Below are positions 15,001 through 18,000 of a DNA stretch of 64,000 bases, in pieces (within the stretch, counting starts at the first letter, position 1; each line of letters starts with the position of its first letter). The DNA lies in NCBI RefSeq assembly GCF_016903815.1, contig NZ_CP069973.1, one strand, 5' to 3'. Source of the DNA: Escherichia coli. Its GTDB lineage: Bacteria > Pseudomonadota > Gammaproteobacteria > Enterobacterales > Enterobacteriaceae. The position numbers are program-made.

Positions 15001-18000
15001 TGATACGCATATATTGCCGCCAGCGTCAGGAACAAAATATTACGCCCAGGGACAAACGTATTCGGGATGCCATCAGCTTCAGGTTCATAATCAGGCACCG
15101 GAATGCTGTCACGCGTCAGGCTACTGACCGCCAGCTCGTTGAGCAGCGTTACATCAAGAACCTTATGCGCGCGTGCCCCCAGTTTCAGCGCCAGTTCGCG
15201 TGCCACGTCGATTTCTGCGCGATGTCGCTGACCGTAATCGAACGTCACGCAATGGACTTCATCATATTGTTGTAATGCCTGCACCAGACAGGTGGTGGAA
15301 TCCTGGCCTCCACTGAACACAACGACAGCACGTTTCATAGATAATCCTGCTTGAACAATAAAAGCGTTATGGTAACGCCTGCGATTAACCCGGACCAGCT
15401 ATTCATTGCGACGGCGCGGGAAGCCAGGCTTCGGTAAATTCAAACCAGCCGCGCGGTGTCAGTCGCACACCGTTCACGCCGGGAGGGGCACTAATGCGAT
15501 AGTGATAGTTGAACAGCGGCGTCAGCGTCGCATCTGTCATTAACTGGCTAAAAACCGCTTTCAGGGCATTAAATCGGTTTTCTTCATCAGGCATTATTTG
15601 CACGGCATCCAGTGTCGATTGTAGATGTGCGTATGCTGGAGCGTCGAAAACATGTGGCCACAGCGGATCGCAGCGCAGCCATTGCTCCAGAGTATATTCC
15701 GGTGCTTCGCCAATTAATCTGTCGCCCATCATGAGGTCTGCGTGTGGGCACTCACCAGCAACTGCTAGCGGCCCAGGGACGCTACTGGCAGATGTATCAA
15801 CTGCAACTTGCGGGCGAAGAGCTGGCAGCCAGCGTGCGTGAAGAGGAATCATTGAGCGCCTGAATAGCGCAATATTTCATCGTTGGTGCAAAAATGTAAC
15901 GCACTGTGCACTGTCATAGTGCGTTTTCATTTTCAATCTTCTTAACTTCCTGCTCTCTTTCTCGTTTTTCATTTCTGGCACACCGCTTGCAATACCTTCT
16001 TCGTGTAGCAGAACCATTACCGAATTCTGACCGGAGGGGATCTATGAAGCTGGTGACCGTGATAATCAAACCATTCAAGCTGGAAGACGTTCGTGAAGCG
16101 TTATCTTCCATTGGTATTCAGGGCCTGACCGTCACCGAAGTGAAAGGTTTCGGGCGTCAGAAAGGGCATGCCGAGCTGTACCGGGGAGCGGAATACAGCG
16201 TCAACTTCCTGCCAAAAGTAAAAATTGATGTGGCGATTGCTGATGACCAACTCGATGAAGTGATCGATATCGTCAGTAAGGCGGCTTACACCGGAAAAAT
16301 TGGCGACGGCAAAATCTTCGTCGCTGAATTGCAACGCGTCATTCGTATTCGTACCGGCGAAGCCGACGAAGCGGCGCTGTAATCTCTGGCACACAGCAAC
16401 AGGAACGAAAAATGAAGATAGCGACGATAAAAACTGGGCTTGCTTCACTGGCGATGCTGCCGGGACTGGTAATGGCTGCACCTGCGGTGGCCGATAAAGC
16501 CGACAATGCGTTTATGATGATCTGTACTGCGCTGGTGCTGTTTATGACTATTCCGGGGATTGCCCTGTTTTACGGTGGGTTGATTCGCGGCAAAAACGTG
16601 CTGTCGATGCTGACGCAGGTGACGGTGACGTTTGCACTGGTCTGTATTCTCTGGGTGGTTTACGGTTACTCGCTGGCGTTTGGTGAGGGCAACAACTTCT
16701 TCGGCAACATTAACTGGCTGATGCTGAAAAACATCGAACTGACGGCGGTGATGGGCAGCATTTATCAGTATATCCACGTAGCGTTTCAGGGATCGTTTGC
16801 CTGCATTACCGTAGGCTTGATAGTTGGAGCACTGGCGGAACGAATCCGCTTCTCAGCTGTGTTGATTTTCGTGGTGGTATGGCTGACGCTCTCCTACATT
16901 CCGATTGCGCATATGGTCTGGGGCGGCGGTTTGCTGGCTTCTCACGGTGCACTGGATTTCGCGGGTGGCACCGTGGTGCACATTAACGCCGCAATCGCCG
17001 GTCTGGTGGGCGCATATCTGATAGGCAAACGCGTGGGCTTCGGCAAAGAGGCGTTTAAACCGCACAACCTGCCGATGGTCTTCACCGGGACTGCCATTCT
17101 CTATATCGGTTGGTTTGGCTTTAACGCCGGGTCAGCGGGCACGGCGAATGAAATCGCAGCACTGGCATTTGTGAATACTGTGGTCGCAACGGCGGCGGCA
17201 ATTCTTGGCTGGATCTTCGGTGAATGGGCGCTGCGTGGTAAGCCTTCACTGCTGGGAGCGTGTTCAGGCGCGATTGCCGGTCTGGTCGGCGTGACGCCAG
17301 CCTGTGGCTACATTGGGGTTGGCGGCGCGTTGATTATCGGCGTGGTAGCTGGTCTGGCGGGCTTGTGGGGCGTTACCATGCTCAAACGCTTGCTGCGGGT
17401 GGATGATCCCTGCGATGTCTTCGGTGTGCACGGCGTTTGTGGCATTGTCGGCTGTATCATGACCGGGATTTTTGCCGCCAGTTCGCTGGGTGGCGTGGGC
17501 TTCGCTGAAGGTGTGACGATGGGCCATCAGTTGCTGGTACAGCTGGAAAGCATCGCCATTACGATCGTCTGGTCCGGTGTGGTGGCATTTATTGGCTACA
17601 AACTGGCGGATCTGACGGTTGGCCTGCGTGTGCCGGAAGAACAAGAGCGAGAAGGGCTGGACGTCAACAGCCACGGCGAGAATGCCTATAACGCGTAACA
17701 AGCACTGCAAAAAAACAGCCGGACGGTTTTCACCTCCGGCTATTTTTTTAATTGTGATTACGCATCACCCCTTCCTGAACGGTCGAGGCAACCAGCACGC
17801 CATCCTGGGTATAAAACTCACCGCGCACAAAGCCGCGAGCGCTGGACGCCGAGGTGCTCTCCACGCTATACAGCAGCCATTCATTCAAATTCAACGGGCG
17901 ATGGAACCACATGGAATGGTCAATGGTGGCAATCTGAATCCCCGGTTCGAGAAAACCGATGCCGTGCGGCTGTAAAGCTACCGGCAGGAAATTAAGATCA

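Follow-up and report, generated by a model that had tools for sequence, protein, structure and literature searches.

In E. coli K-12 MG1655, queC and glnK stand at the two ends of the gene order queC-ybaE-cof-ybaO/decR-mdlA-mdlB-glnK, in which ybaE is on the minus strand and cof, decR (ybaO/cyuR), mdlA and mdlB are on the plus strand. The distance from the 5′ end of queC to the start of glnK is 7,050 bp in that genome and 705 bp (15338 to 16044) in the 64,000-nucleotide stretch of E. coli DNA analysed here (the window). The locus raises the question of how the intervening genes were lost and whether their loss has mattered to the strains that lack them. The initial annotation, using this K-12 gene order and distances of about 7 kb and 0.7 kb, had proposed a deletion of about 6.4 kb. 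The order is correct according to the MG1655 annotation, the distances agree with our measurements, and the deletion is real; its extent and the details of its junction required correction.

Alignment of the queC-glnK interval, which had been suggested as a check, gave exact breakpoints and a 1-nt microhomology. BLAST of window positions 14000–17000 against K-12 produced two collinear blocks, with 97.7% and 98.7% identity, that meet at 15746; this base corresponds to both positions 2456 and 8801 of the K-12 locus. A 20-kb query (window 6000–26000) was used to find close relatives in which the interval is intact. The nearest of them, DA33137, is base-for-base identical to the query, and the sole difference is a gap of 6,345 bp, the same length that is absent relative to K-12. 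In an exact prefix and suffix comparison, 9,747 and 10,255 bases, respectively, were identical to DA33137, with an overlap of one base. The junction is located at 15746/15747, and the G at 15746 is attributable to either side. It contains no filler bases, IS or scar, as every base of window 6000–26000 is accounted for by DA33137. In K-12 coordinates, the missing segment is approximately 465,956–472,300 (±1 nt, by arithmetic from the alignments). The junction had been placed at 15855–15900, but the alignments with K-12 and DA33137 put the true site 110–150 bp further left; positions 15855–15900 cover the stop codon of mdlB and the beginning of the undisturbed mdlB-glnK spacer.

One breakpoint is within ybaE and the other is within mdlB. 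Of cof, decR (cyuR, ybaO) and mdlA nothing is left, and 80% of ybaE and 93% of mdlB are missing as well. The claim that Cof, DecR/CyuR/YbaO and a functional MdlAB are absent was therefore upheld. The window is identical to strain 7/2 (NZ_CP023820.1) over positions 1–32000 and, by BLAST, over 26001–47200, and the ORF coordinates at 58–60 kb match. In the annotation of this strain, the left flank is an intact queC (14643–15338, minus strand, a 231-aa ORF), and the right flank is an intact glnK-amtB operon (16044–17698, plus strand) with ORFs of 112 and 428 aa (glnK, 16044–16382; amtB, 16412–17698).

Between the flanks, two gene remnants abut at the junction. The 3′ remnant of ybaE (15403–15746, minus strand) retains 344 of 1,701 nt, encoding YbaE residues 454–566 and the stop codon, and it has neither the 5′ part nor a promoter; PGAP annotates 15403–15744 as a partial pseudogene in strain 7/2. 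The 3′ remnant of mdlB (15747–15863, plus strand) consists of the last 38 codons and the stop codon, with 100% identity to MdlB residues 556–593, and it lacks a promoter and a start codon. The proposed removal of mdlB thus holds for most of the gene but not for its last 118 of 1,782 nt, which are still present at 15746–15863 if the shared G at 15746 is counted. PGAP also treats this remnant as a partial pseudogene in the strain that is identical to the window. Both remnants are 3′ ends that face away from the junction; therefore, their promoters and start codons lay in the deleted DNA.

The deletion also created a chimeric ORF of 149 codons (15403–15852, minus strand), which had been taken for the 3′ end of ybaE. 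This holds for residues 37–149, which are 100% identical to YbaE residues 454–566 of K-12 (BLASTP), but not for residues 1–35, which are encoded antisense to the mdlB tail; the junction falls within codon 36. The upstream stop codon that had been noticed is an in-frame TGA nine codons 5′ of the ATG, with eight codons between them. A simple scan of the minus strand found no sigma-70-like site 5′ of the ORF. The exact protein is encoded on at least 352 public contigs, such as those of E. coli BIDMC 77 and BWH 40, where it is called a "hypothetical protein". The chimeric ORF is probably not a gene. As the remnants point away from the junction and their promoters were lost, both of them and the chimeric ORF would be silent.

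The regulatory region of glnK escaped the event. The sigma-54 promoter core, TGGCACACCGCTTGCA, was found intact at 15976–15991 on the plus strand, 230 bp to the right of the junction, in agreement with the initial annotation, and it is the single exact match to TGGCAC-N5-TTGCA in the whole window. The mdlB-glnK spacer is unaltered, with 100% identity to the intact relative. Two terminator-like hairpins are also retained, one with a T-run 3′ of the mdlB stop codon (15898–15925, plus strand) and one after ybaE (15380–15362, minus strand). The former sits in a stretch with TGCAC-type repeats upstream of the glnK promoter, which we take to be putative NtrC sites from the known NtrC consensus. Regulation of glnK-amtB would thus be unchanged.

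The sequences around the ancestral breakpoints were compared for features that could have driven the deletion. Within 60 nt on either side, we found no in-register direct repeat, nor any of 9 nt or longer, and the shared direct 6-mers are no more numerous than in shuffled sequences. One 8-mer is shared between the breakpoints, but it is offset and out of register. A 9-nt inverted match was also observed: TGCCAGTAG spans the left breakpoint, and CTACTGGCA is located 36 nt to the right of the junction (window 15782–15790). By our own estimate, which is not a computed shuffle, chance would give about 0.05 such matches, and the significance of this one is borderline. It is compatible with neither a simple hairpin nor a slippage model, and we draw no mechanism from it.

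Several conventional routes can be set aside. Homologous recombination between direct repeats is contradicted by the lack of any repeat of at least 9 nt within 60 nt of the breakpoints. An IS-mediated adjacent deletion is not consistent with a junction that contains no extra sequence, and the nearest IS, IS1397, is 29 kb away and is also found in intact relatives. Excision of a mobile genomic island does not fit a segment of core genes that has no flanking repeats and was matched in 5,379 of the 5,426 complete E. coli genomes searched. The endpoints are in unrelated sequences, with neither extended homology nor foreign DNA. As judged from the junction, the event is a classical illegitimate deletion of the non-homologous, RecA-independent type, because it combines a microhomology of 1 nt with the absence of a mobile element.

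The lost segment is nearly universal in the species, being at least 80% complete in 5,372 of the same 5,426 genomes. The exact junction is present in 45 of them. The 47 genomes without a match to the segment comprise these 45 carriers and two others; since all of the carriers are among the genomes without a match, they contain no second copy of the segment. Beyond the carriers, two genomes lack the segment and seven have partial matches; the pig strain 20Ec-P-124 is among these nine. Loss or damage in only about nine others out of 5,381 genomes argues that the segment is normally under purifying selection, and this counts against an assumption of neutrality. The carriers come from many countries, and their sources include humans, water, sewage and a wild bird. 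The suggestion that the deletion might be unique or engineered was not borne out, as an identical junction is found in 45 independent complete genomes; the comparison with related strains showed that the junction is common to these 45 and that close ST405 relatives are intact. A literature search pairing ST405 with mdlB, decR or ybaE yielded no description of the deletion, and two genomic studies of ST405 do not mention it.

The junction is accompanied by a second marker. The substitution acrR T86G (AcrR V29G; window 29293, plus strand), 13.5 kb from the junction, is present in all 45 carriers. An 85-bp query around it matched exactly in 46 of the 5,426 genomes, namely the same 45 carriers and one unrelated genome, WP8-S18-ESBL-07. 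Over window 26001–44600, 36 genomes are 100% identical and all of them have the deletion (KY 1497 was checked directly), and every known-intact relative among the matches listed has at least one mismatch; the SNP that separates the carriers from the intact relatives in this region is acrR T86G. The identical junction and its complete linkage with AcrR V29G are most simply explained by a deletion that occurred once, in a single ancestor, and was passed on clonally, and the monophyly of the carriers would rest on that junction and this one linked SNP. The substituted residue is in the helix-turn-helix of the AcrAB repressor. AcrR V29G has been reported with T213I and N214T in highly levofloxacin-resistant isolates (PMC4317672), and the AcrR encoded in the window likewise ends in ...PAITE. 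Sub-inhibitory ciprofloxacin selects AcrR V29G in vitro (PMC7260183). AcrR V29G therefore offers an obvious reason for the success of the lineage without a role for the deletion.

The carriers belong to a definable part of ST405. WCHEC96200 and WCHEC4533 are described as ST405, phylogroup D (PMC5762679, PMC9037040). Of the seven MLST loci, the window itself contains adk (40452–41096). We looked up 23 genomes (13 deleted and 10 intact) in Table S4 of a study of 1,778 ST405 genomes (PMC13098264). All 13 carriers are ST405, O102:H6 and FimH27, and they fall into BAPS cluster 2 (BC2: 222, WCHEC96200, WCHEC4533, NMBU-W10C18 and PEC1013), BC3 (PEC1020, PEC1021, FDAARGOS_448 and Survcare321) or BC6 (7/2, AR_0006, AR_0015 and elppa5). 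The intact genomes are FimH27 in BC5 (E597, FDAARGOS_1282, WP7-S18-ESBL-09, WP4-W18-ESBL-09 and YL03), FimH27 in BC6 (DA33137) and FimH29 in BC3 (50579417, Z1002, AR_0372 and P31_YH1_02.21). YDC107, which is also intact, is O102:H6 and ST964. Carriers span BC2, BC3 and BC6, and the deletion is the equivalent neither of a published BAPS cluster nor of the NDM-5 "subgroup B". Nor does fimH discriminate the carriers, as 7/2 shares an identical fimH with other ST405 genomes, including the intact DA33137, and with YDC107 and K-12.

In 97 genomes, both deleted and intact, IS1397 is inserted between gsk and ybaL (approximately 44.7–46.1 kb in the window); therefore, this insertion is older than the deletion and marks a wider lineage. 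Carriers make up about 45 of approximately 100 complete genomes of the lineage, where the denominator is 97 by the IS1397 marker or 107 if the 45 carriers are added to the 62 genomes whose segment matches the ST405 version at 99% identity or more.

The consequences of the loss can be predicted from studies of K-12. CyuR (DecR/YbaO) is a cysteine-activated activator of cyuPA, which encodes a cysteine importer and a desulfidase responsible for anaerobic cysteine fermentation and H2S release in E. coli (PMC9040844). The annotation of strain 7/2 shows both cyuA and cyuP intact. Since CyuR is gone and there is no second copy of the segment, cyuPA in the carriers would be orphaned and not inducible by cysteine. 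By analogy with K-12, the carriers would perform no anaerobic cysteine fermentation and no cysteine-dependent H2S release by the cyuPA route. CyuR also represses its own cyuR-mdlAB operon, which is induced by SoxS, and the lag in cefazolin and vancomycin was prolonged in an mdlA knock-out, although complementation failed (PMC11408624). The carriers are likewise expected to lack the MdlAB ABC exporter, Cof, which is an HMP-PP phosphatase according to the RefSeq annotation, and YbaE, an uncharacterised SgrR paralogue.

Taken together, these observations suggest that illegitimate end-joining or slippage joined the interior of ybaE to the interior of mdlB in a single ancestral event, that this 6,345-bp deletion arose in the FimH27, O102:H6 sublineage of ST405, and that it has since been inherited vertically with AcrR V29G, 13.5 kb away. 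We give this reading a probability of about 0.85. Purely vertical descent is opposed by the distribution of carriers over three BAPS clusters, and intact genomes are found in two of these (BC3 and BC6) as well. This means either that the clustering departs from the phylogeny or that the allele has moved by recombination. In the latter case, a single origin would have been followed by spread between sublineages in a homologous block of at least 13.5 kb that includes both the junction and acrR V29G. We regard such a transfer as improbable because the authors describe the agreement between BAPS clusters and tree as no more than broad (PMC13098264), and FimH27 and O102:H6 are common to all of the carriers looked up; the surroundings of the locus in ST405 (0–1 SNP per 20 kb) are too uniform for a tract to be visible. 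Independent deletions in the interval do exist, such as the ybaE-to-tesB deletion in the pig strain 20Ec-P-124, and they could point to a recurrent hotspot. However, there are no repeats to drive recurrence, and the 45 genomes are base-identical at the junction across many laboratories, sequencing platforms and countries, which also speaks against an assembly artefact. A laboratory construct, whether made by lambda-Red/FRT or as an ORF-precise deletion, would not be expected to have endpoints inside genes rather than at ORF boundaries, to lack any FRT, lox or cassette scar, and to be found in 45 natural isolates from humans, water, sewage and a wild bird. The chance that the junction is a hotspot, a construct or an artefact is negligible, and these explanations are refuted for practical purposes.

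If the carriers descend from one deleted ancestor, the loss may have been selected or may have hitchhiked. Most simply, the deletion is a neutral or near-neutral passenger, neutrality being assumed, and the success of the lineage derives from resistance mutations and plasmids. The alternative is that the ST405 sublineage profited from the loss of CyuR and MdlAB (or of Cof or YbaE), perhaps because cysteine import and H2S production were shut off, a costly SoxS-induced exporter was removed or the derepression of AcrAB by AcrR V29G was compensated. A segment that is close to universal (5,372 of 5,426 genomes) is deleted in about 45 of approximately 100 complete genomes of the ST405 lineage, and the deleted form is seen on at least 352 contigs. 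Nearby, acrR carries a known resistance mutation. Of the 13 carriers looked up, nine are in subgroup B, which has been called expanding and rich in blaNDM-5 (PMC13098264). These points favour selection, but complete linkage with AcrR V29G and clonal inheritance are equally predicted by hitchhiking. Moreover, the FimH29 part of subgroup B is intact, and the deletion therefore does not track NDM-5 carriage; loss of cyuR or mdlA in K-12 lowers tolerance to some antibiotics, if it has any effect (PMC11408624); and other successful clones show no convergent loss. Positive selection for the deletion is thus unlikely. We are slightly more doubtful of the wider proposal that an adaptive loss of cyuR-mdlAB (with cof and ybaE) helped, together with AcrR V29G, to found the globally disseminated FimH27 ST405 sublineages. 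If the loss were adaptive, the benefit would be the absence of cysteine-inducible import and H2S in the gut or urinary tract, or an offset to the cost of derepressed AcrAB, in sublineages that now carry much of the blaNDM-5 of the clone.

Whether or not it was selected, the junction is useful as a PCR or in-silico marker, as the queC-glnK amplicon is approximately 0.9 kb in carriers and approximately 7.2 kb otherwise. The junction and the perfectly linked acrR V29G identify a large sublineage within ST405, a high-risk clone. The deletion also shows that E. coli can spread globally as an extraintestinal pathogen without a segment that about 99% of its genomes conserve. The carriers are also predicted to keep an intact cyuPA and yet to be unable to induce it. 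The event is of an ordinary kind and involves no new mechanism or kind of element. PGAP had already flagged both remnants as partial pseudogenes. The new findings are modest and comprise the exact anatomy of the junction, its confinement to a FimH27, O102:H6 sublineage of ST405, the perfect linkage with AcrR V29G and the prediction for cysteine catabolism.

Lineage-specific loss of core genes is known from pathogenic E. coli and Shigella clones, for example in the "black hole" deletions around cadA. As in those cases, conserved chromosomal genes with housekeeping or accessory metabolic roles have been deleted, the deletion is fixed in one successful clone, remnants persist, and the deletion serves as a clonal marker. 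In contrast, the ST405 deletion is small (6.3 kb), involves no IS, marks only a sublineage within an ST, and its adaptive or antivirulence role would be hypothetical. The Keio knock-outs of cyuR (decR/ybaO), mdlA and mdlB in K-12 lack the same genes and supply the predicted phenotypes, namely no cysteine-induced cyuPA and, for mdlA, altered tolerance to cefazolin and vancomycin (PMC11408624, PMC9040844). Unlike these mutants, the ST405 carriers lack the three genes simultaneously, and cof and most of ybaE as well, with no cassette or scar, and their background is a multidrug-resistant phylogroup D lineage in which the phenotypes are predicted. The closest natural counterpart is the deletion in 20Ec-P-124 (NZ_AP017610.1), which also begins inside ybaE and removes cof, decR and mdlAB. 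That deletion is larger and has other breakpoints, with the additional loss of glnK and amtB and a fusion of ybaE to tesB, and it belongs to a single pig isolate of another lineage, whereas the ST405 junction is shared by 45 complete genomes.

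An IS1397 copy, belonging to the IS3 family, lies in the intergenic region between gsk and ybaL (window positions about 44603-46167), and its transposase CDS is on the minus strand (44715-46063). The identical gsk-ybaL insertion was found in 97 complete genomes. Because these include deletion carriers and ST405 relatives with the interval intact alike, the IS1397 insertion is an older lineage marker.

The acrR gene is located at 29208-29855 on the plus strand and carries the V29G substitution within the helix-turn-helix (codon 29, GTA to GGA, position 29293), alongside a C-terminus with T213I/N214T. 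The exact acrR V29G allele is present in only 46 of the 5,426 complete genomes, comprising all 45 deletion carriers and WP8-S18-ESBL-07. The AcrR V29G substitution has already been published; it is associated with fluoroquinolone resistance (PMC4317672), and ciprofloxacin selects it (PMC7260183).

In three of the deletion carriers, NZ_CP142925.1 (B20105), NZ_CM132947.1, and NZ_CM132945.1 (strain 405), window positions 26001-44600 matched as two pieces. The matched span in these genomes was 19,311 bp rather than 18,600 bp; therefore, they contain an additional insertion of ~711 bp somewhere within the acrB-gsk region.

Losses in the ybaE-glnK interval also occur elsewhere. In the pig isolate 20Ec-P-124 (NZ_AP017610.1), a truncated ybaE is fused to tesB (positions 3657-5955 of L009, the locus taken from this contig), and the deletion takes out cof, decR, mdlAB, glnK, and amtB. 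This deletion is independent of, and larger than, that of the ST405 carriers. Outside the latter, losses in the interval were found in about 9 of 5,381 genomes; such losses are recurrent but rare.

A 9-nt inverted match was observed near the breakpoint. One copy, TGCCAGTAG, spans the left breakpoint in its ancestral form (positions 9746-9754 of L003, the sequence of an intact relative), and its partner, CTACTGGCA, is found on the right side of the junction, 36 nt away (window positions 15782-15790). The chance expectation for such a match is about 0.05, which is our own estimate rather than the result of a computed shuffle. The inverted match is not consistent with a simple deletion model.

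At the right end of the window, a gene for a TolC-family outer-membrane protein follows ybaT (58447-59801, plus strand). PGAP flagged this gene as frameshifted in the identical strain 7/2, and its longest ORF in the window begins only at 58506. Next to it, also on the plus strand, siiEA starts at 59910 and continues to the window end; this giant BapA-related adhesin gene is about 20.8 kb long in strain 7/2. Together, the two genes resemble a type I secretion adhesin island with a possibly defective outer-membrane component.
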